Positions 7,600 to 49,994 of a stretch of DNA of 60,000 bases are shown piece by piece. The notes under the pieces are model-generated. The model had not been told where the DNA came from. It was given only the letters and a program-made list of their open reading frames with translations, and searched no databases. The stretch is from Amphiscolops sp. MND2022. Its lineage: Eukaryota. The stretch is taken from positions 30,258,001-30,318,000 of the forward strand of contig OZ076409.1 in NCBI GenBank assembly GCA_964187785.1, written 5' to 3'. The position numbers and the translations under genes are program-made. The stretch's first letter is position 1. Each line of letters opens with the position of its first letter.

Positions 7600-8973
7600 T
7601 GTAGTTCGATATAGCTTTCAAAATGATAGAGCATTTGTAGCAAGACTATGTAGGAAGCTTTCATGATTAGCATGATGAATTGCCCATGAAACAGCATACT
7701 GTGCTCATACTTCTTTTCATTGACAGTTTATACTGCTTTATGCAGTTCTTACTAAGCCACATATGCGGCTTTTGCAAGAAAACAGTATGATGACTACATA
7801 CGTGCGGATAGTTATGCTACTTACCGCGTTATGCGGAAGTATTGTAAAAACATCATGACGATTACATCCGTGTGTACGTTTATACTCCTCACCGCATTAT
7901 GCGGAAATACCTCAAAACAGCATGATGTTTAATTCATAATTAACATAATGAACAGCAGTAGAACAGCACCGATAAATTAACCTGCATCATGCGGTTTCCA
8001 TAAAACAGTATAAATGCGGATATTCTGACGGAACGTCATAATCCGCATTTTACTTCTACAGTAATTTGCTGATGTAGCAGCACTATATTTAGACCTTCTA
8101 GGGATATGACGCTATGAATTATTTTTAATCCCTGACCCTAGAAACATGACGTTATGATGATTTGTATAAAATTGATTGTCATGCTACTAAAAATACCACC
8201 CAATAGAATCATTCGAAGAGAGTCCCTAAGAAATCAATTTTCCCCACAATCATTCGAAAAAATCTCACGCAGAACACAGTCACTCAATTTCACAAACTAC
8301 CCACAGTTCTCAAACTTTGCAGTTTTCTTTCTTTGTAGAGATAACTTCCACGATTTCATTTCACCAAAATATCTTTGTAATTCAAAGATTTCTACACTCA
8401 ACACTGTTTTCATCATGGGAAATAAAAGAAATAGACGTTCAAGAAGGATAGAAACTCAGTCATCAGACAGAGAAGAGAATACTTCAGAAACAAGCTTCAC
8501 TCAAGGTAATGCGACTTTAGTTGATGTTTCTGGAAATGTTAATAACATTTTTGACAGGAACTTAGGTAGCGAACTAACAGAACCTTCACAAATCAGCAAT
8601 GAAATAGAAGTAATATCTCAGAGATTATTTGAACAAAATAGTAACAAGATGACACAAATTGAACAGCAACTGAATAGTAAATTCGAAGAGATACTTAGAG
8701 AAATTAGAACAAATAAAGAAAGCAATTTGGCAAACGATGAAGAAGATGCCGAGAACAATAGGCCAGGTCCGTCAAACTCGAAAAATAGAAGTCTCAGGAG
8801 CAATCACGCATCAAATACAACACTAGACAGAGACAAAAATCAGGATGATCGGTTTAGCCCTTCTGAAATGAGTGAATTAAGACAACCGTACACACCACTC
8901 GGAGTTGCTAATGAGACACTAGATGAAACCATCATTATAAATGAAAACCGACAGGAAAATGCCGATCATCACA
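7600..8973 (+). mobile_element. LTR relic (solo or 3' LTR) of the second Gypsy family ending in a gag N-terminal segment
   Basis: ORF from ATG 8415 (MGNKRNRRSRR...QKFEE-like coiled coil EQQLNSKFEEILREI...PGPSN) has the same basic/PS-rich/coiled-coil style as the in-LTR gag start at 13327; composition changes abruptly after ...CATCACA at 8973, a CA-type LTR end; left boundary uncertain. Confidence 0.5.
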
Positions 8974-11900: not shown

Positions 11901-12042
11901 TTCCAATTATCCGCCTATACTAATAGCATTGCTAGAAATCATTCCAATTTACCGTCACTGTGACGTCACTGCTCCGGCAGCTAGCGAGAGATTCATTTCT
12001 AAAATACTCGTCAGCATTGCGTCAAACTAGTCAAAATCTCTA

Positions 12043-12190
12043 TTCTGCCAAGAAAACTCGTCAACATGACGTTGACAAGTTCATGAAGCTTAAATTCTGC
12101 CAAGAAAACTCGTCAACATGACGTTGACAAGTTCATGAAGCTTAAATTCTGCCAAGAAAACTCGTCAACATGACTTTGACAAGTTTATGA
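12043..12190 (+). repeat. 52-bp tandem repeat (~3 copies) in LTR U3 containing palindrome GTCAAC-ATGAC-GTTGAC
   Basis: Unit TTCTGCCAAGAAAACTCGTCAACATGACGTTGACAAGTTCATGAAGCTTAAA at 12043, 12095, 12147; repeated in the 3' LTR at ~25962-26110. Confidence 0.9.
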
Positions 12191-13174
12191 AATTGAATAA
12201 AGTGAACGAATTTGCCGAATTTAGTCAAGTTTTCATCGCGCAAATGCCGTTATTTCCTAAGGAGAGAAAATTGCAGACTGTTGCAAATTGTATAACGAAT
12301 ACATTGTTGATTTTCCATGGTTTAAGGTCCCATTTTAGAATGAGTATTGACACATGTAGGATAATTTCAACCTCACGTTAAGTAACGATCATGTATCCTT
12401 AACAATAAAGAAATTTACGTGCATAAATCATCTTATTACAAGATTTCGCAGTAGATTAATGAGGAAGTCACAGTTTATTCTCTCCAACTAAAAAGCATAT
12501 TGTGTACCAGAAATGTATTTTTCATATATTTTGCATTTTTGTACTCTACAACATTGAACGTTGTGCTTGTGAGTGTGATCATGTTTTTCTATATTAGTAC
12601 ATCCGTTGCTGTCTAGTTATTTACGTTGTGTTGGTGTTGTTATTTAACAAACGTTGTTGTTAATTTTGTAAATTTTGTCGTGTTTGACACGACATGACAA
12701 GGTTGCTAACAAAGTATTATTTTCATATCATGATTTCATTCCCATCTCTAGCAAAAGATTGAATCCAAATTCATAAAATATCGTCCCAGCATCGTTCAAA
12801 TATTCCTATTTTGGAATTAGTCATAGCATTTTTATCAAAGCGAAATTCAAAATCAAGTATTTGTTGTTCACGTCAGCGTCATCTCAGCGTCAATTTCCCG
12901 CGAACCAAAGCAGTAAAACAGGGAAGCATTTCCGGTTTGACAGACTGAAGTAATATCTACTTCCTGCTTGGTAGGAAGCAAAAGGACGCCGGGATGAAAT
13001 GATATGATCATGTTTGATGACTAATACTATTTTAAAGTTGCCGTGTCTTAAAAATCGACGAAATGTCAGCGCGAATTTGGGAACTTCGTGATTTTTTCAT
13101 CGATAAAACAGGAAATGACTAATTGTTCGAAGGAAATTAGGGATTATGGTCGTGATCAAATGATGCTGGGAGGG

Positions 13175-13213
13175 TATAAATATGATAGGATTTGATGATT
13201 AAGGGACTCAGTC
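13175..13213 (+). promoter_or_regulatory. LTR core promoter: TATA box and Inr
   Basis: TATAAA at 13175-13180 and TCAGTC at 13208-13213, ~30 bp apart; gag ATG ~115 nt downstream. Confidence 0.6.
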
Positions 13214-13326
13214 TTTTGCAATTGTACAATTCAGTTGAATTTTCAATTTCACTCTCGCCTTGTTCTACTTTGTCAGAAAAATCTTTGAAAGAAATTCAAT
13301 TCTTCAAGTTCAAACTTTTCTACAAA

Positions 13327-14766
13327 ATGTCAACAACAAGAAGCCAAAAAAGAAGGAACGATCAGCAAAGCACCAGTGAGAACGTAAGTGAAGGCTTGAT
13401 TTCACCCATAGTAGTAGGAAATCCTTGTTCTTTGAATCAGGACGATGAGGTAGCGGGGCCTTCTAAACCAAAATCCCCCCGGATTGAGAATAGTCTCTTT
13501 GAAAGCTTGAGGGCTTCCTTAAAGGAGGAAATAACGTCAAAGATTAAGAATCTTCTTATTGAATCCCAGAAGGAGATGTTGAAACTCCTTAAACCTGAAA
13601 CAAGAGGGATCATTAGAGAAAATACCGAAGAAGAGGTAGAGGAGGAAATTAGAAGTTTCTATACTCCTACAAAATCAGTGAGAATAAGTTCAACTCAAAA
13701 CGACCCGATAGCATGTCGTAACATGGTGACAGGAGTCCTAACCGATTCCACAAACCAGCCAAAAAGAACAAAAGCCAGGTCTCAGAGCCAACCGCCGTCA
13801 AAAGAACGTCCAGTAGCGGCAAGGACTTTATTTGCAACAGATAAAAACGATAGCACTACTCTGCCCAAGCCAAAAGCACTCACGGCGTCACTCCCAACCT
13901 TCAATGGGAAGTCGGAAAAATTCGAACTTTTCGAAGACCTTTTTCGCAATAATATCAAAATGTATCCACACCTTACGGATATCCAAAAAATAAACTATTT
14001 CCACTCCCTGCTCAGGGGAGATGCTTTACAAGCATTTTGTAATATCGAAGATACGAAAAAGGATTCCCTTGATGAGATCATGACGATCTTCAAACGACGC
14101 TTCGGAGATTATTTGTCCATGGCCAAGGCAAGATGCGAATGGGATGAGCTCAAATTCGACCCCTCGAACCAGAAACTCCACGAATTTCTAGATGTACTGC
14201 AAAAAACAGTCAAAGAAGCTTTTGGCTCTGAAGCCCAACAATTTATTGACAAGGCAATATATGCAAAAATGCCAGACCATGTAAAGAAAATTTTAAATAG
14301 AGCGTACCTTGAAGACAAACCCTATAACGACATCGTACTGCATCTAGAAAGGGGAATGAGACTTAACGGCCTCGGGGCGCCAGATGAAGTAAACCTGGTA
14401 CCACTAAACAAAGTAGAACCGGCCCCACCAAACACTGAGTCCAAACAGGCCGACAACACAACGCAAAACACCAAGAAAATGTATTGCTTCTACTGCAACA
14501 AATTCGGACACTACAAGGCGGAGTGTAGGAAAATGAAAAGAGATAAATGGATGCAAACCAAGAAAAACAATGGCCGACCCAGCAGCAGTTCAGGCAAACC
14601 ACTTAAATGCGATACCTGTGGAAAACCCCACAAAACAGAAAACTGTTGGAACGGAGCTAACTCGGCAAATGACCCGAGACCTAAACGACATCTCCAACAA
14701 GAAAGGAAACAAGATAACTCTGCACAACAGCAGACAAATCAAGCCGCAGATGAATCAAAAAACTAG
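13327..14766 (+). CDS. gag: Gag polyprotein
   Basis: First ATG in AAAATG context after the promoter; capsid-like LPTFNGK...INYFHSLLRGDA; zinc knuckles CFYCNKFGHYKAEC and CDTCGKPHKTENC. Confidence 0.93.
   Translation: MSTTRSQKRRNDQQSTSENVSEGLISPIVVGNPCSLNQDDEVAGPSKPKSPRIENSLFESLRASLKEEITSKIKNLLIESQKEMLKLLKPETRGIIRENTEEEVEEEIRSFYTPTKSVRISSTQNDPIACRNMVTGVLTDSTNQPKRTKARSQSQPPSKERPVAARTLFATDKNDSTTLPKPKALTASLPTFNGKSEKFELFEDLFRNNIKMYPHLTDIQKINYFHSLLRGDALQAFCNIEDTKKDSLDEIMTIFKRRFGDYLSMAKARCEWDELKFDPSNQKLHEFLDVLQKTVKEAFGSEAQQFIDKAIYAKMPDHVKKILNRAYLEDKPYNDIVLHLERGMRLNGLGAPDEVNLVPLNKVEPAPPNTESKQADNTTQNTKKMYCFYCNKFGHYKAECRKMKRDKWMQTKKNNGRPSSSSGKPLKCDTCGKPHKTENCWNGANSANDPRPKRHLQQERKQDNSAQQQTNQAADESKN
13724..13738 (+). 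promoter_or_regulatory. Primer binding site (probably tRNA-Leu type)
   Basis: TGGTGACAGGAGT immediately after the LTR CA end; complementary to a tRNA 3' end ...ACTCCTGTCACCA. Confidence 0.75.
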
Positions 14767-14812
14767 TTACGCCGCGCCTGCGATTCGCGGAAACCGTAGC
14801 CGCGAGGGCGTA
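14757..14812 (+). promoter_or_regulatory. -1 ribosomal frameshift signal (gag to pol)
   Basis: Slippery heptamer A_AAA_AAC (14757-14763) just before the gag TAG, followed by a GC-rich stem (TCGCGG...CCGCGA); the -1 frame is open and continuous into the pol ORF at 15252. Confidence 0.85.
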
Positions 14813-17800
14813 CTCATCAACAGATCCCCCCATCACCTATACAAACGACTCAACAGTAGGGTGTGATGTCACACCAACGATAGATTGGCTAAGACGACAA
14901 GCACTCGCTTCTATAAAAAGGTCATATCCACAAACCGAACAAGCAGAAACCTACACTCACGATAAAGACTACAGGGACAATCCTAAACAACAAGCAAATC
15001 GTCCTACCAACTTACCCCCCATCAACAGAGAACTCTCCGCTACAAACCAGATAGAACAAAATGAAAGCGCCTCGGACGACCGCCTATCGTCACAACAAAA
15101 TGAAAGAGATAATCACGACTCCACCAAGACATTTCTGTCCCCAGACGATTTCCCCACATCACTCAACTCAATCAAGGAGTACGTAGCCGAAAAGGATGGA
15201 GAAACATATATACCTCTCCACTCCACTATAGTCCTCAAGAACAGAAGGAGAATGCTGTACTTGCCACTAGAATTCGGTGAAATAACAATGGATGGACTTG
15301 TCGACTCAGGTGCGTTCATCAATGCCATGTCCTGGTCAGACTACAACGCAATCAAAATGAACAGTGATAGTTGTGTCATAAAAGAATACCCTCAACCTCC
15401 TTTCAAGATCGAATGCGCAAACGCCCAACTAGAGCAACCAATAGCCACAGCGGACATCCAGTTCAATATTGGAACATATACCATCACGGATACCTTCGTC
15501 ATCCTGTCGAAAACGTCATTCCCTATCATAGGATTGAACTTCATGAGAAATCACCAAGCAGTAATTGACACTGCCAACGGAACCATCAATTTCCCGCACG
15601 TCGAAATGACGCTAGCCATGACGGACGAGATGAAAAAATGCAACCCGAAACCGCTCCAAATAATGGCAGAAGGAAATCAAACCCTACCGCCCCAACGAAC
15701 AACAACAGTGAACGCAATAGTCATAACCACAAACATGCATGACGTCACTGGTGCGGTACAACCACTACCACAATTTGATGAAACAGCAACAATCATTGTT
15801 GCACCAGCTCTGGCGACAGCCCATAACAAAAGGCTCAACATCAGAATCGCCAACCTAACGGATTTCCCACATACAATAAAGAATCATACAAAGCTGGCAG
15901 AACTACAAATCCTCAAACCTGAGGACACGAAACAAATACGACCAGTTGATGCCGCCGCACTCAAATTGTTAGAAGATCCTGATGACACACACATGTACAT
16001 CAACGAACTTATGAAATCAAATGAACATGAACAAAGCGATGAAAACCTCTGGTTCCCCACACCCGAGAATCCAGGGAACGAAGAAGAACATACGCCAATC
16101 CAACGTCGGATCTTGAAGGAAATCCGCGAACTCATCCAAAAGGAAAACTTAGATCCAACCAAAGACCCAGAATCAAGACAAAAATTCCTTGACATGTTTC
16201 AGTGGGAAGGTTCTCAAATCGAAGGCAACGACAGGAAGCAACTTGAGCAAACAATAGTCGAATACAACGATATCTTTGCCCGTCATCGCCTTGATATTGG
16301 AATCAACAATAGCTTCAAAGTCAAATTAACTCCGAAAGACGAGCGCCCAATTTACACGCAAAGCCTATTGGTACCAATCAACCTGAAAGAAGATCTAACA
16401 GTTGAATTAGCACTAATGCATAGGTACGGCATAATAACGACCCTACCATTCTCAAAATATGCAAGCCCAATCTTCGCACAACGCAAACCGAATGGCAAGT
16501 TGCGACCACTCGTCGACCTACGAAAAATAAACGCATTAATCTCAGACGATTACATCAACAATAACCACCCAGTCAGCACCCTGTCAGATGCAGCTCAACA
16601 TCTAGCTGGAAAAAAATTGTTTTGCAAACTAGACTGCTCACAGGCATATCATTGTCTACAGATGGCAGACCAACGATCAATCGAAATGCTAGCCTTCAAC
16701 TTTGCAAGCAGAACGTTCGCCTACAAACGCCTAGCACAAGGACTGAGCAGAGCCCTGTCGGCATTTTCAAGTTTCATGCGAGAATACCTGGATAAAGTAA
16801 TCAAGGCCGACCAATGCGCGCAGTACGTGGACGACATCGGAATTGCAGCCAACTCTGTGACACAACTGATACGCAACATCCGAGCAGTTTTTGAATGCAT
16901 CCGAAGAGCGGGACTCAAGCTAACCATCGAAAAATGCCATTTCGGAGTAACTGAAGTCGAATTCCTTGGAAGAACGATCACACCACAAGGAATCGCTCCG
17001 CAGGATCATAAAATTCAAAAATTCTTAGCAAATGTGAGATTCCCAAAATCCAAGAAACAAGTACAAAGATACATCGGTTTTGTCAATTTTTATCGCAACT
17101 ACATCCCGAGACTGTCTGAGAAATTGCTCGGATTCAATGAACTACTGAAAGCAGACAAGCAAATCAAAATCACAGAAGAACTACTCGACCATTACAAAGC
17201 CATCAACGCAGCACTGGCGCAAGCTTGCGGTTTAGCACTCAAACAACCAATCACAGGACGACAGTACGTCCTGATGACGGACGCCAGCTTCCGAGCCTCT
17301 GGCTACGCCCTAATGATTGAGGAAGACAACGACAAAAAACTCAATTCAAAAAAGAAGACATTTGCACCAGTCGCATTCGGATCAAAGGTGTTCTCCCCGG
17401 CTCAAATCAAAATGTCAATTTACTGCAAGGAATTTCTAGCAATCTATCACGCCTTCCTTGAATACAGCCATATTCTATGGGAAACAACCCTACCAACTCT
17501 TGTGATGACCGACAACAGATCGGTAACGCGTTTCTTCCAAACATAAGCAATCCCGCCCACTCTGTGGAATGCATGTGATTACGTACTACAATTCAACTTC
17601 CACATAATGCACGTCGCGGGTACGCAAAACACGGCAGCCGATTTTCTGTCAAGAATTGATCTCAATCCCAAAGAAAGAGTTGAACTAAAAATCAGAGAGG
17701 ATATTACAATCAGGCCCATCCAAGTGAATCTCCAATCAACGGAAGTCGCGGATGAGGAACAACTTTTCTTCCTTCCGGATGAAACAATTGAAACGGAAGA

Positions 17801-19700
17801 AGAAATCCTACTGCAGAAAGAACAAGCTAGACAAAATGCACGCGACGAGGAGACGACCAAAATCAAAATAGCCATCAAAGAAACCACCCCAATCCCAATA
17901 AATAAGGCATCTTATACCTTTGGGGCAATAAAGGAAGACGCACGTATTAGAGTCGAGAAAGACTCGAACTTGGTTTTCAAAGCAATCAAAAAGAAATTGA
18001 TATGTGAAGAATACGACAAACACCTTCTACAGACCGATCCGACAGCCAAGCGCCTCCTAATCCACGAGAACAGACTAATAGTGAAAGATGGAGTACTAAT
18101 GCGCAAATATTACGGGGAATGTGGCCAAGTCACTCACCATCAAATTTTAATCCCCGAACATTTAATCACAGAACTCTTGAAAGCAATTCATGGACAAATG
18201 GGAAAGCATCCAGGAATCACAAAAATGATTCAAGAATGCCGATCAAAATACTACTACCCAGGATTAGCAAAGAAGATCAGACAGTGGGTAATGCAATGCG
18301 AAGAATGCATCAAATACAAACGAATCAACAACAGCCAAATCCGACCAAAGATGATCAACAATACGGAACACGTCCTAGGCCCAGAAGATATCCTAGAAAT
18401 TGACATATTGCCGAACTTACCAAACTCCGCAGGATATCAAAACATCGTCACGATGATTGATGTTTTTTCACGTTACCTATTTGCATACCCAACGCAGAAT
18501 AGCACAGCAAAAACAATAGGACGATGTATTGTCGACGTCATGACAAGACACGCATACTTGCCAACATTAATCTTATCAGACAAAAGCTCACAATTCCGAT
18601 CAGAAATCGTCGCAGAAATAACCCAGATACTTGAAATTCAAATCAGCCACGCATCTACGAAGCATGCACAAACAATCGGAATTCTGGAAAGAACGCACGC
18701 TTCAATCAAAACCGCCCTAAAAATATCAACGGGCGAACGACGCTCAATGTGGCACAAATATGTCCAAATCGCAGTGATGAATTACAATACAACATACCAT
18801 GAAACTCTGGGCTGCGAACCATCTACAGTATTTCACGGACGTATACCTTACAACGTTCTCGATTTAAAACTGGGCATCAAGCCAAAGTGGAAAACCACCC
18901 CCCATTCAGATGTAGCAGAACAACTCCAAAAACAAATTGACGAAGTGCGAGCGACGGCAAAGGACAACATCATGCTGTCCTATCTCAAATACAAAAAACA
19001 CTACGACCGCAAAGCAACCGCGGCTCCACTAAAAATCAACGACTACTGCTATATACTTAACCCGAAAGCCGACAATCAATCGACAAAGTTTGCGTTTCAA
19101 GATTGCATCTGGACAGGACCGTATATAGTAATCAAAGTGCTTTCAAACAACAACTACACAATACGAAAAATTGGCACAAGATATACACAAACACTACACA
19201 GAATTCGCATACGACCTTACGTGCCAGAACAGCGCTTGCCCGACGTCACAGTACGAGCCAACGACTACCTTCCTGACCCAGAAGTTAAAGTCTCACACAA
19301 TGAACGGTATGCGGTATCATGGGAAATGGATTTTGGAAAGCAGATTGACGAACACGAAACATTAAAAAGTACAGAAAACAATCAACACATAGAAAGACAA
19401 GAAGTGACAAATACGAACGACGAAGACACGACGTCTCAAATGTCAAGAAGTCAAACTGATGACACAAATAACGAGGCGCCGCCATCTCCGGATTTTTCAA
19501 ATCTTACTTCAGAAGTGGGAGATAACCCATACATACGACGCCCCCCACCCATTGAAAGTCCACCTATTCCCCCAACATCACCGCCTACAACTATCGGACA
19601 TAACCCGAGAAAAACAGCAAAGTATAACCTGAGACCTAATCCTAAGCCTAACGCAAATCCTGACTTCCGACGACTTGACGCTATAACTACAACTTACTAA
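14760..19700 (+). CDS. pol: Pol (protease, RT, RNase H, integrase) with one premature stop
   Basis: LVDSGA protease; KLDCSQAY and YVDD RT; MTDAS RNase H; HHCC plus D/D/E (EIDIL, SDKS, LERTH) integrase; single in-frame TAA at 17544-17546 separates two same-frame ORFs. Confidence 0.95.
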
Positions 19701-19961
19701 ATGAAAAGACAGTATCAGTAGTCCAAACCGAACCGGTCTGACGATTTTCAATTGTAGGCATACTACGGCCTAAACGAATATTTTTTTTTCTCTTTTTTTT
19801 CTCTATCTTTTTCTTTCCAACTACAACATTTGGAATATCATCCACGCCAGCATAATACAAAGATACAAAAGAAAGCAACACTTAATACAATCTACATTAC
19901 AACGTCACAACAAAGCAAGAGTACTACAATAAACATGGAAACTGTCTTAAAGTAAAAGTCA

Positions 19962-22900
19962 CTATTTCTTCGAGCTAGATTCACCACCTTTACTGGCAGA
20001 CTTTTTGGACTTCTTCTTGACCACGTTCACAGGCTCCGGTATGACTTCGAAACCACCACGAGAAGCATCTTTCTTTCGCCCAAGCAAAGACGCCAGGCTA
20101 CTGTGAACATGCGTCTTACTCCGTCTAAATGAACTGGTATCACTTGAACTAGGCATAGGAGGGAGAGACGCAGCTGACACAACACTATCCGACAATACTG
20201 CTGAAGATACATCGTCATCGCCACCAGAACGCAAAGCTGGATTCAAGGCATCAGGAGAGCAGGTCTGTTGTGAAACCTCACCCCTCTTCCGGTCGACCCG
20301 AGTTTTAAAAAGATCAGCATAACGCTTCACAAAAGCAGCCTGACCTTCACTGCAAATATCAGCCCAGGGATCGTAGCCAGCGTTCGACATAAAAGACTGC
20401 GAAGCATCAATTGCATCACGAACTTCTTTCATTGTAAACTTGGTAAAAAACGAACTCAGTTTAAAATCAGAAGCAGAAACACAACTTTGCACACCACTAA
20501 TACAGGAAGCTATCACCCACTCGGACACTTGACAGCTTGTCAGACCAAAATCCACAGAAGGGTAATCAACACGAGGTTTCAGCGCTACCAAACAACATAA
20601 TTTGAAGACGCGAACTAAACTCTTGCTGGACAAGAAACTGTAGTCTGATAACAGGTATTGCTGAACATCAACAACGTCCTCTGCACTGGCCCCACAATCC
20701 TCATGCCGCCTCCGCGCATCCACAACAAAGGTTGAATACTCCTCGACAGCCGTCCTCGACTCGGAAGATGACAAACAACCACTTGACTCCAGGACCCGAA
20801 CCAACTTGCTAAACAGACCCAACATGTGATGGTCATCTCCTTCTAACAATAACTCTGGACAAAATGCATAAAGTCCTTGAGAAAACTCCCCAGTCACAGG
20901 TTGTTGACCCAGAATAGCGTCCACCAGTCGGTCCATGAACTTTCGACACTGCTCGCGGAAAGTTCGCCCACTCCCGTCATTACGACCATGTAAAGTCAAC
21001 CCGAAGGAATGGTTTCGCAGGAAATCGTCAGGAGAAATGGAATCGAACTCGTCCACCTTCTCCGCATCGATATACTCCTCCCAATTGTGCAAGCCTGGGA
21101 GAGAACTGATTTTCCGGGTACGCGACAACAGGCAGTAGACAAATTGGCACACTTCCATGTAAAAATGGAAACAGTAATCCATGCGTCCGGACAGCAGCTT
21201 CTTGAAGGAACAACGATCTAAACACAAAATATTTCCACCATATGTATGAAGTCAACATACCCAAAATCCCAACCCGTCAGAACCCAGCCAATAACATAGC
21301 GAAAGCACAACAACTTACAAAGCTCCAGGATGTGTAGAAGAAGACCCAATCGTAGCTCACCCACACCATCAGAGTACACAGTCCAGTCAGTGCCTCGCAT
21401 CTTTAAAAAATCAAATATTCCCACTAAAGTTACCAACACCAAACGAGAAGAGAAAAGAGAGAAGAACACAATCAACACAAGAAAAACAACTAAATAGCCA
21501 AATACATTGCTACTACGAATACTAGGACATAACTTACCCGGCCAGCTTCAGTTTTGATATGACGAGGTGCACTATCCCTGATGAATTTCCGCACTAAAGT
21601 CCACACAGAGAGCAAATCCTTCACGACATCACATAGGTCAGAAAAGACCACTCGTCCAGCAATCACGCTCCGGCGCAGTGCTGGCAAATCGTCGAACCAC
21701 GATTCTTGTAGGGCACCACGCAAACGCAAAACCAGGAAATCAATCATGGTGGTCACTTCCAAACCACCAAACACCTCCTGATAAGCCAGGCGGAAACAAT
21801 GCACGAAGACATCCTCGTTGAAATCCCGGAACACGACAAAGCTACGACTGTCCACTCGACTATCACTCAAGACACGTAAGAGCGTAGGACTGCCCCCACG
21901 ACAAGCAAGATGCAGCTGACAAGAAGTCGTGCTGTCAACGATACGAGACAGACCAGCCAATTCTGCTTTAGGCGCATGTTGTCCAGAGGGCTCCACCCAG
22001 ACACAGACACTCATCTAACAGTGCTCGTCCCACGTCTGTACGAAACACTTATGAGTTCTCTCATCCTCCACAAAGAACACACTGTACTCACGAAATGCAG
22101 AAATCCGCGAGATGAACAAACGCAATGCCCGAGGGAAAAGCGCACGGCAAATTATCGACTAAAACACAAACCAAAATTTGCATCCCAAAAATGCCGAAAG
22201 TTACTCCCTATGACTTCTAGCAGACACCAACACAAAACAACCATATACAAATCGAAAGCGGAAAATAGAACAGCAAAATTAAGACTCACCAAGGATTCAG
22301 CAAGGCTCCAATTCAAACTGTACAGGGGATTCTCTCGGCCCAAAGTCGCTCGGAAACTCCCCCAAAGACGTCGTAAGAGAGTATAACTTCCACCCGACCG
22401 CAGCAACTCAACCAGACAATTGATCATCGTCATCAACGGGACACTCGAATTAGCTTGAGTGCATGCTGGCAACAGATCTTCCGGGAAGCTGAACCCCTCA
22501 CTTTTTCCTTTGCGAGGCCGATCACGATACTCTGACAGTTGAGCCTCAGTCAACACCATTGGGTCCATCAATCTGTTGAAAACTGGCATGTCGTTCTGCA
22601 CACGATAAGTCACGTCCAAAACCCAGTGCCGTTTACCGAAGAAGTGGCGAGCAAATTCGGCAGGGCCTCTTGACTCCATCGATACGTCTCGCTGACAGAT
22701 CATACAGTGGAACAACTTATCAGATCCAGTACTTGACCCACTGACGAAGAGCTCAAACACGGGGTGCCCCGAAACCATGTCGCGTCGCAATCGATTACGA
22801 GGACTGTAGGCTCGTTTTCGCCCTCGAGTGGCCCCCTCCAAAGTCGACTCCATTCTCTGTATCAACTCTTCGAATTCTATAATGGACAAAACGCAATTTC

Positions 22901-24023
22901 AATACAAGACAAAAACAAATAGACACTACAACATAGCACCTCCAAATAGAGAACAATTACTAACAAAAAGAGAGAAAGGAAAACAAACAAAAAGAGGAGG
23001 AAACGATTTTACCACAAAGGAAGAGAAACATTGCGGTATGAATAACCATCAAACCATACTTACTAGCTACAAATGGATCCATGGCATGTCTCTCAGCGTC
23101 TGACTCGACAACCGGTCGCCGCCCTGGAATCAGTGATAGAGTTTTACTGGTAGAAGGTTCAGCGACTTCTTCATCTCCACTGCTGCGCACATCGAACTGA
23201 ACATGTCTACCACTGCTTTCTGACGTGCCCGGACGAAGTTGCAGCAACTTTCCACTCTGCCCAAGTGACTTTTCTTTGTCGGGAGCGGCCAGTAAAGCTA
23301 ATACACAATAGCAAGCAATATTAGGCAGCACAATCAAACCGACTATGGGAAACTAACTTACATAAATAAACAACTAAAACCAACAGTCAACTCACTCACC
23401 ACGTTTGGAAGCAGGAGAACTGATTCGATTGCCGAATGACTGACTGAAACCAGGCAAGAAATCACTGAACCGTGGAGAAGACGTCTTTGCAGCAACATCA
23501 TCTCCTGGCGTCGTTTCTACCTGCTTGCTACTTCCTTGTAGGGGGGGGGACAGAATCTCACCTCCGCGAGTCTCTGAAGCCACGGAAGAACGAATCTGCT
23601 GTGCAAGAGCTCCCAAAGTCATGTCCAATTCGTCAGAATGACAAACAACAGAGTCACTAATGGCAGAATCAACTCCACCAACAAAAACCCGAGAAGGACC
23701 ACCTGGGAAAGAAATTTCCGGAGTAGTGGCGAGAACACCACCAGCAGGGGACGGAATAGTTGGGCCAGAAACTGAAATAACATTCCCCTATTGACGCGTC
23801 AGAAAATCTAAGCTGTGAAAATACGAAACAGAAAAGGTCTATCTGAGAGTAGTATTATTCATAAAAGCTTAATGGTCCGGGGAAGAATAAGCCCACCTGT
23901 TGCCTGCCGACGAATAATATCGCCATCACTCTGGTAGATGTCTCCCTCAGAGAACATGAATTGAGTTTCATTGCCGCTCTGAGCGCCGGTGTCACGACGG
24001 GACGGAGGAGGCTCCTGATCCAT
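19962..24023 (-). CDS. Spliced antisense gene, ~1092 aa, hAT-transposase-derived with zinc finger; one in-frame stop in this copy
   Basis: Exons (minus): 24023-23897, 23771-23400, 23297-23064, 22876-22290, 22158-21538, 21400-21319, 21217-19962; all six introns GT..AG and phase-compatible, total 3279 nt; CMIC-x16-H-x5-H finger; single TAG at 22015-22017; exon 1 donor (GTGGGC) is the weakest part of the model. Confidence 0.8.
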
Positions 24024-24069
24024 CTCAAAATAGCAGAAATCTGGAAAAGAGAAGATATGAAAACAACAA

Positions 24070-24400
24070 TCAAAACTGACGTCACCATAACGGTGACAAA
24101 AATGAAAGTTGGCTAATTACCAACGAAATTGACGTCGGCATAACGTCGACAAAAAGGTTATCAGGGTTAAGAAATTAATCCTATATCCTAAAATGACGTG
24201 ATCAAAACGGTGACAAATTACAAAAGTTAGCTATGCTAGCAAAAATGACGTCAGCATAACGTTGACAAGTTTGGCTAAAGGAATTATTTCAATTTCTTGT
24301 TCAATAAAAAGAGTTGTCGACATAACGTCAACAACTGCGGATCGAAAGGATTTAAAAGATTGATTAACCAATCAGAATGAAGGGATTTATCCCAACATTC
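24070..24400. promoter_or_regulatory. Putative internal bidirectional promoter with repeated palindromes
   Basis: Lies between divergent starts at 24023 (-) and 24482 (+); TGACGT-led GTCRRC-ATAAC-GKYGAC-like motifs at ~24077, 24130, 24194 (degenerate), 24246, plus a related core at 24316; CCAAT at ~24369. Confidence 0.55.
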
Positions 24401-24481
24401 TCAGCAATCCTAATTATCCGGGAAAATTCATTGTGAAACAATCAAACTCGAAAAACAGCAGCCAAGAAATTTCATCACAGA

Positions 24482-25213
24482 ATGAACAACTTGTTAGACA
24501 TTTACGAACTAATCGACATCTCGTCATCAAGCGATGAGGAAGGCGAAATAACAAGATCGTCCACCCCAATACCTAGAGACAGCAGGGCCTACCCGGGGTT
24601 GGTCATCGAAATTCTGAACTCATCAGCAGAGGCGACCGCAGACGAAGAAGAATGCCTCGACCTATCGGTAAACTCACTAGAAACAGAATGCAAGAAAATG
24701 AAGCTGAGTGAGTCGTTCTCTAGTTTTGAAACTGTAGAATCGGGACAATACCCCCACTCTGAGTTGACCGAAGAAGTTATTGCTGACTCCCCGGAAAGCC
24801 CTGATGAAAGCTTGTCTTCGGACATATTCATAGTAGAAGCCCCAGCTGTACAAACCGAATCAGTAACAAGTAGCAAAGTAGCCGAATATCTGGAGAAGGT
24901 GCATCAAGAAGACGCCTCTTCATACTTTGTCACGCCACCTGGTCCACTGAGAAGAATAAATCAGCTGACAACCAGTCCTCTAAACGATCTGGAGGAGCCG
25001 AAATTAACGCTAGACAAAGTCAAGGAAAACTACACTCACGAAAAGCACCTGCGCCAGGCGTTCGACTTCTATCAACCCGGTAAAGCCGTTCGTCCCATGA
25101 CAGTGGCCCTGTCACAGTCCGCTCCCGGACTGGATTGCGGATTCAGGAGAGTTGGCTCTGGGCGTGGACATGGGTGCACCGCAAGACTCACGAAGAGGTA
25201 TTTTGGCTATTAA
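24482..25213 (+). CDS. Acidic Ser/Glu-rich accessory ORF (243 aa) overlapping the 3' LTR
   Basis: Intact ATG-started ORF; last ~34 codons lie in the 3' LTR; no signal peptide or transmembrane segment visible. Confidence 0.65.
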   Translation: MNNLLDIYELIDISSSSDEEGEITRSSTPIPRDSRAYPGLVIEILNSSAEATADEEECLDLSVNSLETECKKMKLSESFSSFETVESGQYPHSELTEEVIADSPESPDESLSSDIFIVEAPAVQTESVTSSKVAEYLEKVHQEDASSYFVTPPGPLRRINQLTTSPLNDLEEPKLTLDKVKENYTHEKHLRQAFDFYQPGKAVRPMTVALSQSAPGLDCGFRRVGSGRGHGCTARLTKRYFGY

Positions 25214-27645
25214 CTCGAACTCTAACTAAATTTAAATAAACTGTGACTTGAAATGCAATAATACTTTTGCCTAGCAAAAATTCCAAATAAAACTAGTGAA
25301 CGCGTTCTAGATTTTTCATGCTCTCGCAAAATTGAATGAAACAGTACCGGAAATGTAAAATACACATTTACCGCGCGCAAATTTGAGCGGAAATGAAATA
25401 AGGAAGCAAAATAATCCAAAAATGATTTCACGCATGTTTGGCTGGACGAGCCAGCCACGACAAATGAAACATTCACAACCTGAAAATTAGAATAAAACTA
25501 TCCCAAGAATAAAGAGACCATAAGCTAATCTAAACGAAAATACATCAAAACTAATCCCGAGAAAATACATTTCATTCGGACCTAAAACAGGAAATTACAG
25601 TGAGACAACACACCGTGGTGATTAAGCCTTTTCTGAGAAAGACAGCTTAATTACTCTTTGAACAGCAATTAAAGTGATTTAGGACGTCAATACTGCGCTG
25701 AGTAAACAAAGCGGCAAAGGAAACAAGAATACATGTATATTTGTCGTTAGTAGGACGCAGACAAGTTTGAAGGCATACCAATTGACGTCACTGCCTCGCA
25801 TATGCATTCCAGAAAATCATTCCAATTATCCGCCTATACTAATAGCATTGCTAGAAATCATTCCAATTTACCGCCACTGTGACGTCACTGCTCCGGCAGC
25901 TAGCGAGAGATTCATTTCTAAAATACTCGTCAGCATTGCGTCAAACTAGTCAAAATCTCTATTCTGCCAAGAAAACTCGTCAACATGACGTTGACAAGTT
26001 CATGAAGCTTAAATTCTGCCAAGAAAACTCGTCAACATGACGTTGACAAGTTCATGAAGCTTAAATTCTGCCAAGAAAACTCGTCAACATGACGTTGACA
26101 AGTTTATGAAATTGAATAAAGTGAACGAATTTGCCGAATTTAGTCAAGTTTTCATCGCGCAAATGCCGTTATTTCCTAAGGAGAGAAAATTGCAGACTGT
26201 TGCAAATTGTATAACGAATACATTGTTGATTTTCCATGGTTTAAGGTCCCAATTTAGAATGAGTATTGACACATGTAGGATAATTTCAACCTCACGTTAA
26301 GTAACGATCATGTATCCTTAACAATAAAGAAATTTACGTGCATAAATCATCTTATTACAAGATTTCGCAGTAGATTAATGAGGAAGTCACAGTTTATTCT
26401 CTCCAACTAAAAAGCATATTGTGTACCAGAAATGTATTTTTCATATATTTTGCATTATTTTTGTACTCTACAACATTGAACGTCGTGCTTGTGAGTGTGA
26501 TCATGTTTTTCTATATTAGTACATCCGTTGCTGTCTAGTTATTTACGTTGTGTTGGTGTTGTTATTTAACAAACGTTGTTGTTAATTTTGTAAATTTTGT
26601 CGTGTTTGACACGACATGACAAGGTTGCTAACAAAGTATTATTTTCATATCATGATTTCATTCCCATCTCTAGCAAAAGATTGAATCCAAATTCATAAAA
26701 TATCGTCCCAGCATCGTTCAAATATTCCTATTTTGGAATTAGTCATAGCATTTTTATCAAAGCGAAATTCAAAATCAAGTATTTGTTGTTCACGTCAGTG
26801 TCATCTCAGCGTCAATTTCCCGCGAACCAAAGCAGTAAAACAGGGAAGCATTTCCGGTTTGACAGACTGAAGTAATATCTACTTCCTGCTTGGGAGGAAG
26901 CAAAAGGACGCCGGGATGAAATGATATGATCATGTTTGATGACTAATACTATTTTAAAGTTGCCGTGTCTTAAAAATCGACGAAATGTCAGCGCAAATTT
27001 GGGAACTTCGTGATTTTTTCATCGATAAAACAGGAAATGACTAATTGTTCGAAGGAAATTAGGGATTATGGTCGTGATCAAATGATGCTGGGAGGGTATA
27101 AATATGATAGGATTTGATGATTAAGGGACTCAGTCTTTTGCAATTGTACAATTCAGTTGAATTTTCAATTTCACTCTCGCCTTGTTCTGCTTTGTCAGAA
27201 AAATCTTTGAAAGAAATTCAATTCTTCAAGTTCAAACTTTTCTACAAAATGTCAACAACAAGAAGCCAAAAAAGAAGGAACGATCAGCAAAGCACCAGTG
27301 AGAACGTAAGTGAAGGCTTGATTTCACCCATAGTAGTAGGAAATCCTTGTTCTTTGAATCAGGACGATGAGGTAGCGGGGCCTTCTAAACCAAAATCCCC
27401 CCGGATTGAGAATAGTCTCTTTGAAAGCTTGAGGGCTTCCTTAAAGGAGGAAATAACGTCAGAGATTAAGAATCTTCTTATTGAATCCCAGAAGGAGATG
27501 TTGAAACTCCTTAAACCTGAAACAAGAGGGATCATTAGAGAAAATACCGAAGAAGAGGTAGAGGAGGAAACTAGAAGTTTCTATACTCCTACAAAATCAG
27601 TGAGAATAAGTTCAACTCAAAACGACCCGATAGCATGTCGTAACA
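25110..27645 (+). repeat. 3' LTR (2536 bp)
   Basis: Near-identical copy of 11191-13723, followed by the TSD CACAT. Confidence 0.97.
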
Positions 27646-27677
27646 CACATGCTGTCAGATTTGGCGATACTTGCTTG

Positions 27678-28770: not shown

Positions 28771-30279
28771 ATGAATCATTACTCAGGATTTTTTCTCGAA
28801 TAAATTAGTTCAACAGAATTTTTACAGTTTGACTGTCTTTTTCAGGCTATTTTCTGTTTGGAGTACACTCACACGGACTTGATAATTGTTTTGGAGCAGT
28901 TATATCAGACCTGGAGCAAAGTAGTCTCACCTCAGTGTCATGATCGGTTGAATGCCTTCAAGTAACATTTGAAGAGAGTAATTATTATTTTTTTGTTTGT
29001 ACTTCTCAGTTTATGTCTTCTTTCCTACGAGTATTGTGTTTTTTTTTCAACCTAAGAGTCTTTAGAAACTTTCTTCAAAGACAAAACTTATGCTGCCACA
29101 TTGTTCCTCATCCGAAATGTTCTTCTTCATTGAAAGTTTATCCTTTTATGTTTCTTTCCTTCCGTAATTTCATAGTTACTTTCTCATTTGTTGTTGTTCA
29201 GACCATTCTGCTTTCAAAATTGTGAACGGGGCATCAGCAGACAAATTCAAGATATGCAATGCATATGCTTTCTTCGCTTATAGCCAGCTGCAGGTAAGCC
29301 TTCCAGATTATTTTCTCCTTGACATATTTGACTGGGACCGCTTCTTCTCTAATGACCTTTCTTCTCCTGATCTGCCTCGAAAGACATCAGCGGAGTCTTG
29401 CAAAAGAAAATGCGTTCTTCTACTGGAACATAGTCTCCAAAAACCGAAACTAGTCATCCGAGTCAAACTAGAATATAGTCATGAGTCGCACTTACCAGCC
29501 GATTGTTCGGTTCAGCAACGTTGGATCACTCCTCCCACTAAGCCTCTTTCATATTAGAGAGTACAACTTTTTTGTGGAGAGATTCCGATCCAGTGAGGTT
29601 AGTTGTGAAGGGAATCGGGTCACATTCATGTTTGGCTAATTGTCACAAAAGTTTTTTCATTAATTTAATGTATGCTGACTAGGACTCTTTAATGCTCGCT
29701 AGCTTCCTGCTTATTTTCTCTTTCTTGGCCACCCTTGCTTCTAGCCTCAGCTAGTTCGAGTCCTGTGTTAAAGGGTTGCAATCTTCTCTTTCTGTAGTTC
29801 ATCTTGTCACTGCACTTTCCTCCAACACTCGGACAGTAGCACCAGTCTTCTCTCTGCTCGGAAGTGGTCGAGCCTTTCTGGAAGATCAGGATTTCTGTGA
29901 CGACGTCGATTGCCTAACCGGTTCGAGTACCGTTATGCTTGCACAATTATCGAGAAGGAATAACTATGGGTATCTGTGCAGTCGCCCTCTCAAACAACCT
30001 CCCCCACTGGTTCTGAAACTGGCCGTAAATTTGTCGCTTATTCTCCAGTTCGCTGTGAAACTAGTACTGTTTTGCTGGGAAAAAAACCACGACTCTGTTT
30101 CGTTCTCTCGCTACTCTTGTTTTATCTGTGCCACGTTTCGTGTTCGATGTGCTGTTTTTGCCTTCTCCTGAGCCAACTTCCATGAAGCGGGTCATAAAGA
30201 AGAAGCATTCAGAAGAAGGGTATTTCCGTCTCTTGTGTATCGTCGTTTGGGTTCAAGATTAAGCAATAGTCCTCTGTTG

Positions 30280-32800
30280 TTAGAGGTGCCGCTTTTGCAT
30301 TTTCATCGTAGTACGGTTTATATTTAAGGTTACATTGCACTATATTTTTTCCGTCTGGTCGTCAAGTAATGCAGTTCGTCGTTGAACTTCTTCTGCTACC
30401 CCAGTTTGAGGTTGATAGCGAGAATTTGGGTTGTCCCCAAGTTTAAAGTCCAAGATATCAAGTAAAATTCTTCCATGGAAGACTCGTGTCCGTTCACATC
30501 CGAGAATTGCATAGTACGTAGTTTTGTGATTTGAGAAAACCGTTGGTAGAAATTTGTGCCAGCTATTTCTGAATTCTCCTGTTTCCGGCTTTTAGGTGTG
30601 CTTTAACTCAAGCATGCGTACGTTCTAACAGTCCAATTGTTTGGTCATGTTTTGTTGTGGCATGTTTAAGTTCCACGTGTAAGACTCCGGCTACTTTTGT
30701 TTAGTAATCTGTGAGTTGAATTGGGTTACCATGTCAGTGATTTTTGTCGTTGACAAATATTTGTCTTTGCTCAAAGAGTCCATGATGATCCTTGCAACTG
30801 CTGTGGCAGTTATTCTTGTTACTTGATAAGCAAACAAATAGCGTGAAAAAACGTCTATCGCTCTGATGATGTTGCCCCATCCTCCCATATGCAAGATATT
30901 CGCTGGGCCCAGGTCTAGTTGAGGACAATTGTTCAGTTTTGAGGAGGTCAATATTGATTCTTTGTGTTGAATGCACATTTGACATTTTGTTACCCATGTT
31001 CGGATGTAATTGGCAATGCATGGGTAGTAGTATTCCTGTCATGCTCCTTCGATCATCCTTGTGATTCCTGGATGACTTGCAGTTAGCCCATGTAGGTCTA
31101 GAACATGTAGGAATTTTATCTAGGAGTTGTTTGGGTGAAAGGATTTGGTAATGTGAGATCCAGCCTGTAACATCGTAGTATCCTCTTGATAGAGCATCTT
31201 GTCTGATTTCAACCCGAGTTTTATTTTGCAGGTAGTGTTTGTATCAGTAGTCCTCTGTGATTTTTTTCATCGAAAACTTCACCCTCGAATTTGGCTCGTA
31301 GATTGTGTAGAGCTTGGTAATTAGTTTATTTCGAGCGGATGTTGCCATTCTCTTTGAAGTGTCTTTTTCTGTAATTGGTTGTACCTGCTGTGGGTTTATG
31401 AAAGTTCTGAAGTTCTTAGACTTCGCTTTTTGGGTCTTTGTGGGTTTTCCTTTAGCTTTTTTACGTAATGTTTCCTTTTCTTCCCACAGTTGTTGATCTG
31501 TGTGGGTTTCTGGTAGTATGTAGGTAGTAAGTAGAGGAGTTATTCCTCAGCAACACCAGCAAATTGTATATTCACTTCTATTGCTTTTGTTGTAACATCG
31601 TTTCGTATGTTTAATTCAATTTTTTCGGTGGAGACTGCACTGGAGCACGTCGTTGCAAGCATTCTCAAGTGGTGGTGGTATTATTTTGATTTGGAAAACG
31701 CGTGTTACTGAACGGTTATCCGTACAAACGATAACAAGAATACCACTTCCCCTTATTACATGTGGGAATTCGGAAAATGCAAAATAAAATTTCAATACTT
31801 TTTTGCGTATATTGAGTTTTTCAGTTGTGTTGCGTGAATGTTTTTGAACCAAAAGCAATCGGGGCATTTTTTTCTCTGCTGGATTGGAGCTTTTGGTTAG
31901 GATCATCTTCGATCATGATGCCATATCCAGCTGCGTTAAAGCTCGCATCAGTCATCATACCAGGTTGTTCAGGCGTTGGGAACCAGTATGTTGCTTGTTC
32001 ATCCCGTGGTTGGTCAACTTCCACCAGTTGGTTGAGATACACATCAGCGTTTTCCATGTGTTGATGCAATATGATGGTGAGAGTCGATGGATCAGCGGGT
32101 TTGATGTGTTTGATTTCTCCTGGAGTTAGGACTCGGAAAACTGCCATATAGGTGTCGATTGGAAGAGTATAAGGCATATCCGAGAAGTTCGGATGCGGTA
32201 ACTCACTCCACTGTTTTTGATGATTGCCTTGTGGTCTATCAAATGCCGCATTTTGGTGGATATTGCTAGAGTTTCTCCATGTTGAAGGGTGTAGGTAGTT
32301 TCTGTCAGCAGAAATGTCGATGCTCGGGTATTGGGGTTGTGTTCTGGGCGTAGTTGAAATAACAGTATTGGGAATGTTATGGGACTTTGTCGAATGTCTC
32401 TGTAGGAAGCACAACCCAAGGAGTGGATTCGGTAGTGTCTTCATCATGGTGTAGTTTTTTTGGAATCGGAAGTCTACTACTTCGAATTCAAGGAGGAAAA
32501 GTTCAATGGGGCAGTCAAGTGGCTGACCGTTTGTTACCATGATTTGAAAATCCGGTGCTGGTCCAGTGTCCTAAATTGCTTTATCGGATAGAAGTTTAAC
32601 TTTAATAGGATCGAATTGAGAAATGGAGCTAGTGAAGGCGCTTGTGTCAATGAGTCCATCTAAAATTAGTTGCTCGAAGTCCATTGGGAAAACGTACATG
32701 TGGCGTTTCTTTTTGAAAGTCAGATTTAGGGAATGATTCAAATACATGATATTACTGCCTTCTTCCGTGGTGAGATGACTGAAAACATCATTGTCAAGAA
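30280..32800 (-). pseudogene. pol: Decayed Gypsy pol related to the main element, RT deleted
   Basis: GLIDTSA protease, WFPTPE, MTDASFNAAGYG, APIAFGSK, TDNRSVTR, AIDVFSRYLFAY integrase motifs; many frameshifts and stops. Confidence 0.88.
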
Positions 32801-33249
32801 GAGGTTGTTTCATAGGTGATGCACAAAACAGGGTCCAAAATGGGCACAAGAGACTTTTTCAAGTCAGAAATCTCTGTTGTGAGAATTATAAGCTAGCAGA
32901 GCAAAAAAATATGGAAGTATAAGAGATATTTAACAAGAGAATTTCGATAAGATAAGAGCCAAGGACGAAGAATAAGAGAAAAGAAGACAGACTTCACAAG
33001 TGTAGGAGAATTATAAGCAAAGAGAAGCTTAGAGAAATAGGAAAAGATGGGAAGCTACAAGTAAAAGAACAGAAGGAGAGTAGGAAAAGGAGGAGATAGA
33101 GAAGAAGAGAAAGGATGAAGGAAGAGAGAGGGCGAAGGTCTGCCAATTGGCAGGAGTTTCGATCTCCAGCTGTATCAAAACAGTACAGCATATTTGCCAG
33201 TGGTACTTGAGGGTGTATATTCCGGTCTCTGGTGATCCTGGAAAAGACA

Positions 33250-42564: not shown

Positions 42565-42962
42565 ACGAGAAGATGAATGATGAAAATAGCTGGTTGCCGA
42601 ATAGTTTTATAATGCGTCTTTAGAAATCTTAAACTGCCTCACTTCCGTTCTGGTGTTTGCCTCACATTATTGGTGGTGTAGCTAGTGTGAATTTGAGGTG
42701 AATTAAAAAAGAACGATGGAAATAGCTTGTTGCTGAATAGTTTTTTATTGCGTCTTCAAATATGTTAAACTGCTTCACTTCCGTTCGGGTGTTAGCCTCA
42801 CATTATTGGTGGTGTAACTAGTGTGAATTCGCGTTGAATTAAAAGAGAACGATGGAAACAGCTTGTTGCTGAATAGTTTCAAAATGCGTCTTTAGAAATC
42901 TTGAACTGCCTCACTTTAGTTGTGTTAAACTCACTACTGGCGGTGTAGCTACTGTGAATTCG
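42565..42962. repeat. ~136-bp tandem repeat (3 copies) between divergent genes
   Basis: Recurring AAATAGCTTGTTGCTGAATAG...CACATTATTGGTGGTGTAGCTAGTGTGAATT. Confidence 0.8.
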
Positions 42963-49890: not shown

Positions 49891-49994
49891 ATCACAATAA
49901 ACAAAATCCAAGAAGGCAACTCAATTTCAGTTATACTTCGATAATAATTTAAAAAAGACGATGCTAACAGGTACCTCTAAACTAAATGAAACAA

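Follow-up and report, generated by a model that had tools for sequence, protein, structure and literature searches.

The stretch of DNA analysed here, referred to as the window, comprises 60,000 nucleotides of contig OZ076409.1 from Amphiscolops sp. MND2022 (assembly GCA_964187785.1, positions 30,258,001 to 30,318,000 of the forward strand). Comparison of the window with itself identified two direct repeats that delimit a complete 16.5-kb long terminal repeat (LTR) retrotransposon at 11191-27645. In addition to gag and pol on the plus strand, this element carries a split gene of seven exons on the minus strand between pol and the 3' LTR, which is separated from a second accessory open reading frame (ORF), ORFx, by a divergent intergenic region (Table 1). 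We consider it highly probable that the minus-strand block at 19962-24023 is a genuine protein-coding accessory gene and that it is an integral and long-standing part of a large Ty3/gypsy-type family in this animal genome.

Table 1. Features of the retrotransposon and its accessory genes, in the order of the window.
Feature	Position	Strand	Remarks
Target-site duplication CACAT, 5 bp	left 11186-11190, right 27646-27650		flanks both LTRs
5' LTR, 2533 bp, TGTCAC...GTAACA	11191-13723	+	followed directly by TGG, where the primer-binding site is expected
gag open frame, stop to stop	13189-14766	+	Pfam DUF1759; upstream part inside the LTR
pol	14754-19700	+	protease-like, RVT_1, RT_RNaseH_2, Integrase_H2C2, rve (Pfam)
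Spacer between convergent stop codons, 261 bp	19701-19961		indel-rich among copies; presumed 3' untranslated region (UTR)/polyadenylation region
Exon 7, 1256 nt with stop	19962-21217	-	helical domain; Ser/Lys-rich disordered tail with a basic cluster at its end
Intron 6, 101 nt	21218-21318	-	GTAAGT..TAG, phase 1
Exon 6, 82 nt	21319-21400	-	found in 5/6 diverged loci
Intron 5, 137 nt	21401-21537	-	GTAAGT..AAG (CAG in most copies), phase 0
Exon 5, 621 nt	21538-22158	-	contains private in-frame TAG, 22015-22017
Intron 4, 131 nt	22159-22289	-	GTGAGT..TAG, phase 0
Exon 4, 587 nt	22290-22876	-	most conserved part; CCHH zinc finger at 22706-22626
Intron 3, 187 nt	22877-23063	-	GTAAGT..TAG, phase 1
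Exon 3, 234 nt	23064-23297	-	fast-evolving linker
Intron 2, 102 nt	23298-23399	-	GTGAGT..TAG, phase 1
Exon 2, 372 nt	23400-23771	-	low-complexity, indel-prone
Intron 1, 125 nt	23772-23896	-	GTGGGC..CAG, phase 1; weakest donor
Exon 1, 127 nt, ATG at 24023	23897-24023	-	peptide 59-67% conserved in two diverged cassettes
Divergent intergenic region, 458 bp, antisense ATG to ORFx ATG	24024-24481		presumed bidirectional internal promoter
ORFx, 243 aa, acidic, Ser-rich	24482-25213	+	second accessory ORF; ends 104 nt inside the 3' LTR
3' LTR, 2536 bp	25110-27645	+	pairs with the 5' LTR

The two LTRs have TG..CA ends and are 99.29% identical over 2536 columns. Pfam matches within pol were found in the order RVT_1 (1.4e-23), RT_RNaseH_2, Integrase_H2C2 (1.1e-14) and rve, giving a plus-strand gene order of gag, protease (PR), reverse transcriptase (RT), RNase H and integrase (IN). 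The original prediction had labelled the element Gypsy and its host apparently an animal. The label fits the PR-RT-RNaseH-IN order and the RT_RNaseH_2 and Integrase_H2C2 matches, and on its domains alone the element fits the Ty3/gypsy type (Metaviridae), a superfamily call in which the same gene order is also compatible with Bel/Pao. DUF1759, matched by gag, is frequent in Bel/Pao gag proteins. The 20 nt upstream of the 3' LTR are not purine-rich, and no tRNA was matched to the TGG that follows the 5' LTR. Wnt genes are confined to animals, and since the 1.07-Gb host genome encodes Wnt-family genes (best E value 3e-45, above the Pfam cut-off) the host is an animal, as had been supposed. In pol, an in-frame TAA at 17544-17546 separates the RNase H part from the integrase part. 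This codon is not a stop in any of 17 other loci, so the TAA represents damage private to the window copy and programmed read-through was rejected.

Rebuilding the antisense gene from the sequence, by open-segment mapping and projection of the model, reproduced exactly the seven-exon minus-strand structure that had been proposed, with exons that sum to 3279 nt or 1092 codons plus a stop. Exons and introns differ in composition, with a GC content of 0.47-0.54 in exons versus 0.32-0.40 in the T-rich introns. The length is divisible by three in only one of the six introns, and every intron contains stops in at least two of the three frames. Lenient enumeration yielded 2084 stop-free GT-AG paths through the region, so frame-matching alone proves little and the case for the gene is carried by comparative evidence. 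The start ATG is kept in all 17 unique copies. The single in-frame TAG, at 22017-22015 (codon 488), was predicted to be private to the window copy, and indeed that codon is not a stop in any of the 16 other unique copies. A stretch of pyrimidines that ends with CAG is also present 17 nt before the antisense ATG (24026-24043, minus strand); this CAG might serve as the acceptor of an additional 5' UTR intron, leaving room for an upstream non-coding exon.

The ratio of non-synonymous to synonymous substitution (dN/dS) was calculated for all pairs of nine copies and ranged from 0.14 to 0.45 in the frame of the model for 35 of the 36 pairs, compared with 0.93-1.59 when the same columns were read in shifted frames. 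The exceptional pair (dN/dS 1.32) consisted of near-identical copies with 17 and 4 changes. Values differed between parts of the gene, being lowest in exon 4 (0.03-0.04), followed by exon 5 (0.15-0.23), exons 6-7 (0.15-0.40) and exons 1-3 (0.28-0.67). Codon positions were counted in a 20-row alignment from which three duplicate rows were dropped to leave 17 unique copies. Variable sites common to at least two copies were distributed 58:32:164 over codon positions 1:2:3, in comparison to a flat 92:112:125 for singleton sites, which indicates that changes were filtered by selection as long as the lineage transposed and accumulated neutrally once a copy had inserted.

The whole 3.3-kb spliced frame is open in 6 of the 16 other copies, including copies that are 7-8% diverged. 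Overall, pairwise diversity was 0.031-0.045 in exons versus 0.033-0.065 in most introns, and 13 indel runs were counted in 3279 exon bases, eight of them in the low-complexity exon 2, versus 18 in 783 intron bases (the three duplicate rows are included in these diversity and indel values). Both the expectation of a dN/dS below 1 and that of exons conserved over introns were therefore borne out, and judged by this pattern of substitution the block at 19962-24023 is a real coding gene under purifying selection.

The association of the gene with its element was surveyed in the genome of the same species. Among the scored part of 1678 candidates, at least 38 matched the block over nearly its full length at 92-100% identity, and 12 copies were fetched with 3-kb flanks for a collinearity check. 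In all 12 the block was collinear with the 3' LTR side and adjoined pol-derived sequence on the other side; nine aligned without a break from 17015 or earlier in pol through the block, and the remaining three comprised one copy with a pol of 89-95% amino acid identity, one that is 5'-truncated inside integrase and one with an internal deletion. Pol and the accessory gene also stand tail-to-tail in seven of seven diverged subfamily loci (six diverged and one of a more distant clade), in which amino acid identity is 45-97% for pol and 27-80% for the accessory protein. The prediction that the gene travels with the element is thus upheld, and neither absence of the block from other copies nor terminal inverted repeats (TIRs) at its ends, the two signs of a nested insertion that had been named, was found. 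A nested DNA transposon was rejected for this lack of inverted repeats.

An ORF that runs antisense to gag-pol and lies between pol and the 3' LTR, a placement typical of plant antisense ORFs (aORFs), occurred in all copies examined. The family is very large and young, with at least 150 exon-4 matches at 79% identity or more among the scored part of 7440 candidates. On the plus strand A exceeds T (AT skew 0.23-0.34) continuously from pol across the antisense gene and no further than the element borders, a composition that fits long residence of the gene in the element.

Splice sites provided a second line of comparison. Among the 16 other unique copies GT..AG was kept at 93 of 96 intron ends, and in four of five diverged loci introns 4-6 occur at the same phases (0, 0 and 1), with GTRAGT or GTTAGT donors and YAG acceptors, where the choice of splice sites required an open frame and not a consensus donor. 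The open frames of these four loci, the fifth being degenerate, span 829-839 aa in comparison to 847 in the window. When 50 unspliced ORF translations from the protein collection were aligned, the similarity extended exactly from one border of exon 4 to the other, and the codon that follows exon 4 is a near-invariant Val (GTN), that is, the donor itself. The introns thus have the features of spliceosomal introns, namely GT..AG ends, pyrimidine-rich 3' ends, restoration of a single frame and positions conserved among relatives. Exons 1-3 are favoured by splice sites conserved in the subfamily, by clear composition steps and by the conservation of the exon 1 peptide given in Table 1.

Relatives without introns were also recovered. 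A search with the exon-4 profile against 1.84 billion representatives returned 515 matches at E<=0.001, one of which, P0288 (890 aa), carries exons 4-7 as a single uninterrupted frame. At least 51 scored P0288-type relatives in the Amphiscolops genome have open frames of 862-918 aa that are 47-53% identical to P0288, and one of them, locus L039 with a 905-aa single ORF, also faces a pol. The spliced window product is collinear with P0288 (residues 250-1063 versus 57-866, 27% identity) and likewise with the L039 frame, and both alignments are gap-free at the exon 4/5 and exon 6/7 junctions, so that these two junctions are confirmed, at the level of the alignments, by the intronless relatives. 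Beyond its own genome the family is represented by P0288 alone, which is at most 53% identical to anything scored here. A survey of JGI metagenomes gave 282 pattern matches, none of which was confirmed, and a word search for longer or fused relatives found none among 8000 candidates.

Introns 4 and 6 are precisely present in one clade and precisely absent from the other. Such codon-exact presence or absence of short segments is, from the alignments, the behaviour of spliceosomal introns, whichever the direction of change. Only the three 3' introns are missing and the one before exon 4 is retained, as would be expected if introns had been lost when a spliced mRNA was reverse-transcribed; intron gain would also be compatible with these data. 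No processed, intron-free copies of the window subfamily were seen among the 150 scored exon-4 matches of the 7440 candidates, a weak test made by open-frame length. From the selection on the frame, the conserved splice sites and the intronless relatives that span the junctions, we infer that the antisense gene is separately transcribed and spliced.

Comparison with a further locus, L034, revealed a mosaic of three segments of clearly different divergence. DNA identity to the window element is 86.7% over pol (15582-19753) and 92.6% over 24025-25555, and between these segments the alignment is limited to exon 4 (71% identity). The breakpoints fall at the ATG of the accessory gene and in the spacer directly after pol. 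Synonymous differences amount to a proportion of 0.84 in exon 4 and of 0.45-0.54 in pol, so the gene body is older than its flanks. On these divergences the accessory gene has passed as a cassette from one element lineage to another, in a way that resembles the exchange of env among retroviruses; template switching when two RNAs are co-packaged is the presumed route.

Conservation at the protein rather than the nucleotide level between such cassettes also bears on whether the antisense transcript might instead act as RNA, with double-stranded or small RNA directed against the element and an open frame that is incidental. The antisense unit does face the end of pol, its RNA would be complementary to the genomic RNA along its whole length, and antisense non-coding RNAs are described for micropia, TART and IAP in the available text of PMC7264820. 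An RNA-only role leaves unexplained both this conservation and the frame-specific constraint, and we regard it as very improbable; an added RNA effect of a protein-coding gene would be compatible with the same data.

The encoded protein contains one recognizable domain. Exon 4 includes the pattern C-x2-C-x16-H-x5-H, in which C57, C60, H77 and H83 are each at least 90% conserved among 50 aligned homologues. The model of this exon (predicted local distance difference test, pLDDT, 76; predicted template modelling score, pTM, 0.61) shows a beta-beta-alpha finger followed by helices, with strands at 54-57 and 62-65 and a helix at 72-78, all at a pLDDT of about 90. By its ligand pattern and modelled fold this is a finger of the C2H2 (CCHH) type. 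Sub-threshold Pfam finger matches occurred among the exon-4 homologues (zf-C2H2_ZN292 in 7 of 50 and the KIN17 finger in 5 of 50), and weak structural matches were obtained to the TUT4 and ZBED1 fingers. Exon 7 was modelled as an all-alpha domain, confident only at residues 110-210, with a disordered Ser/Lys-rich tail. Atlas, a language-model search in which all scores fell below the bar of 0.9 and serve as leads only, pointed to RabGAP-TBC for exon 7 (0.86) and to the hAT-derived families DUF4371, ZBED5-like, EPM2AIP1 and DUF659 for P0288 (0.79-0.82).

These hAT leads raise the question of whether the block is a passenger, either a host gene or the remnant of a nested DNA transposon (for example a hAT-like one with a zinc finger), that was trapped between pol and the 3' LTR and has no role. 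An antisense, intron-bearing gene is not acquirable from mRNA, so capture at the DNA level would be its natural origin. A useless passenger should decay, yet substitutions that predate insertion avoid codon positions 1 and 2, exon 4 has a dN/dS of 0.03, and the gene is kept across clades whose pol proteins are only 45-58% identical. The ends of the block have no TIRs, zf-BED, DUF4371 and hAT Pfam families were matched by 0 of 50 exon-4 and 0 of 48 exon-7 homologues and by neither P0288 nor the L039 ORF, and the Atlas leads to hAT families are all below the bar. DBD_Tnp_Hermes was matched by one of the 48 exon-7 homologues (E 0.019). A passenger without a role is therefore improbable in our judgement.

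The region between the antisense gene and ORFx is rich in repeats. Four copies of a 49-nt unit, 52-64 nt apart, occupy 24052-24269, and a fifth copy of the motif extends the array to 24334. Within 24077-24330 there are five TGACGTCA-like sites, all with a 17-nt palindromic core, GTCRNCATAACGKYGAC, next to them; four of these cores match the pattern, and about 21 TGACGTCA-like sites would be expected by chance in the whole 60 kb. The palindromic cores are conserved in two other cassette types, with three in each. A search of the window against Rfam gave no matches. Sites of ORFx that vary in common among copies are distributed 32:17:106 by codon position, which indicates a real gene under purifying selection, and ORFx relatives are present in five of six diverged loci. 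None of the families in Pfam was matched by ORFx. As the repeat array lies between two divergent genes that are both real, 24024-24481 is predicted to be a bidirectional internal promoter.

These observations can be combined into a proposed mode of propagation for the gene. The genomic RNA of the element would be made from the plus strand, in which the six introns of the opposite strand read CT..AC. The spliceosome would consequently leave them in place, and each new copy would inherit the whole split gene. The antisense gene would be transcribed separately from an internal promoter in 24024-24481, and the same 458-bp region probably drives ORFx in the opposite direction. The transcript would end in the 261-bp spacer that faces the end of pol and would be spliced into an mRNA for a 1092-aa protein with a loosely constrained N-terminal part (exons 1-3) and a highly constrained domain that contains the CCHH finger (exon 4), followed by helical domains from exons 5-7 and by a basic tail that is disordered. 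The gene body itself moves between element lineages as a cassette. By analogy with known systems, we tentatively suggest, at somewhat less than even chances, that this protein binds nucleic acids in the nucleus and serves the element in trans, either by controlling its expression or replication or by countering silencing by the host.

Alternatively, the gene may be a weapon between elements or a self-limiting repressor, which would shut down rival or excess copies in trans and would not assist replication. A single genome contains several cassettes of deep divergence that sit on almost identical pol and LTR backbones, candidate copies number in the thousands (7440-11116 first-look candidates), and the palindromic repeats beside the gene are kept between cassettes as for a shared control region, all of which would suit such a conflict. 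Purifying selection and universal retention fit an activator and a repressor equally, and no result separates the two; we hold the repressor to be unlikely.

Several observations weigh against a genuine, functional gene of the structure given here. The window copy itself is dead, with private stops in pol and in the accessory gene despite an LTR identity of 99.3%. The donor of intron 1 (GTGGGC) is poor, no canonical AATAAA is present in the presumed 3' UTR at 19701-19961, and the promoter, the ends of the transcript and all splice junctions are predicted. Constraint on exons 1-3 is weak, and in two diverged loci the N-terminal part allowed 20 and 448 alternative stop-free paths with no single structure for these exons. 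A 6-residue gap just after the exon 5/6 junction, in comparison to the intronless relatives, makes that junction less certain. At the protein level, no Pfam family was matched at E<=10 by any exon, by P0288 or by the L039 ORF. Sequence searches of the PDB gave no match for the exon-4 profile and only chance-level matches (E above 1) for P0288 and the exon-7 profile, and no fold match was obtained for the modelled exons. Both models cover single exons, that of exon 7 is poor (pLDDT 60, pTM 0.37), and the functional proposal draws on one zinc finger, a basic tail and analogy. With these points considered, the selection on the frame, the retention with pol and the intronless relatives still favour an antisense accessory gene carried by an animal element; the coding and residence tests were all favourable to this part of the original prediction, transcription itself being predicted.

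Antisense ORFs between pol and the 3' LTR have been described mainly in plants, in the Tat/Retand-lineage elements Grande (gene23), RIRE2, Retand and PvRetro13 (PMC7264820, PMC11963269, PMC4408406). In the available text of these sources, the aORFs of maize Grande, rice RIRE2, Silene Retand and PvRetro13 share with the present gene its position, its orientation, its presence in most family copies and tandem repeats in the region. Grande gene23 has its own promoter and a nuclear protein, for which a regulatory role is suspected and unproven (PMC7264820, PMC11963269). Plant aORF proteins carry TRP28/Transposase_28, PMD or SMC-like domains, whereas Pfam detected no TRP28 (PF04195), PMD or SMC-like domain in our exons or in the intronless relatives. 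The word intron does not occur in the main text of PMC7264820 and PMC11963269, in contrast to the six introns of the gene reported here, which differs further in its animal host, its second sense ORF and its clear cassette exchange.

Boty-like elements of Botrytis and Sclerotinia carry another non-plant antisense gene, brtn, which likewise lies between pol and the 3' LTR (PMC7264820); the likeness concerns placement, and the hosts are fungi. In comparison to the plant aORFs, the animal host, the six introns, the partner ORF and the modular exchange are new here, while the placement is the same and the logic probably so.

Among animal retroelements the known parallel is provided by deltaretroviruses, including HTLV-1 with HBZ, whose antisense genes have a promoter in the 3' LTR (PMC10186651). 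Like the present gene, HBZ is an antisense gene of an animal retroelement, and it regulates its element; it differs in being small, with one intron and a start in the 3' LTR, in comparison to 4 kb, six introns and a presumed internal promoter here. The main HBZ mRNA is spliced and HBZ is a bZIP protein, whereas no bZIP match was found in Pfam for the antisense protein.

The Tor elements of the tunicate Oikopleura have an internal promoter for env and so offer a precedent for an internal promoter of an accessory gene, although env lies on the sense strand without antisense introns. Burro of planarians and the ORF3-bearing LTR elements of bdelloid rotifers are likewise enlarged animal elements of Ty3/gypsy type with thousands of copies, but their extra domains, among them env, DEDDy and GDSL, are described as belonging to the sense polyprotein or to ORF3 (PMC6431247, PMC5408684). 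In the available text of these two sources the term antisense is absent from PMC6431247 and is applied in PMC5408684 to small RNAs only. No animal LTR retrotransposon with an antisense, intron-bearing coding gene was found in the literature, with most subscription journals and supplements outside coverage.

A broader interpretation, which we regard as doubtful when taken jointly, is that a whole superfamily of animal retrotransposons depends on this intron-bearing antisense gene and that its introns are an adaptation. HUSH-type silencing targets intronless mobile transcripts. Antisense placement might then be the only way for such an element to keep introns, and a spliced mRNA would permit host-like expression and escape from surveillance of intronless transcripts. 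The finger protein would bind the palindromic repeats in its own bidirectional promoter, the deep divergence and free exchange of the cassettes would reflect an arms race, either against silencing by the host or among rival elements, and the clade without the three 3' introns would be the record of a spliced antisense mRNA that was reverse-transcribed into an element.

Antisense accessory genes of LTR retrotransposons have so far been mainly plant and fungal and obscure in function, with deltaretroviruses as the animal parallel. The family described here brings together a large split gene under strong selection, a second ORF, an internal repeat region and variants with and without three introns. 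The questions that it makes addressable are the role of such genes for their element, whether introns aid expression or escape from silencing, and how accessory modules are shuffled between retroelements. The family is also relevant to annotation, as gene finders would either call thousands of these genes as host genes or miss them.

Some further observations concern the element and its surroundings. The internally deleted copy (locus L014, on the chromosome-scale contig C2 of the same genome) has RT residue 559 joined to the end of the accessory gene and retains gag, the accessory gene and ORFx. In the window element a small inverted repeat, TGACAG...CTGTCA, spans the border of the 3' LTR (25085-25115), and TGACAG is present again in the presumed primer-binding site (13724-13740). 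Each LTR contains a short internal tandem duplication with a unit of about 52 nt (12042-12191 and 25961-26110), and extra TGACGTCA sites are located inside the LTR at 11864 and 11961.

Elsewhere in the window, two other LTR-element pol remnants were found at 30215-32819 (minus strand) and 36403-37692 (plus strand), with 23-54% identity to the pol described above; the second has RVT_1 and RT_RNaseH_2 at 36691-37644, and no homologue of the accessory gene lies beside either remnant within the window. The segment from 34 to 40 kb shows a strong GC skew (-0.38 to -0.50). Tandem arrays occupy 54496-59956, 49969-50870, 51856-52555 and 42570-42977 and consist of a unit of about 1.55 kb present four times (88-100% alike) and of satellites of 129, about 185 and 136 bp.

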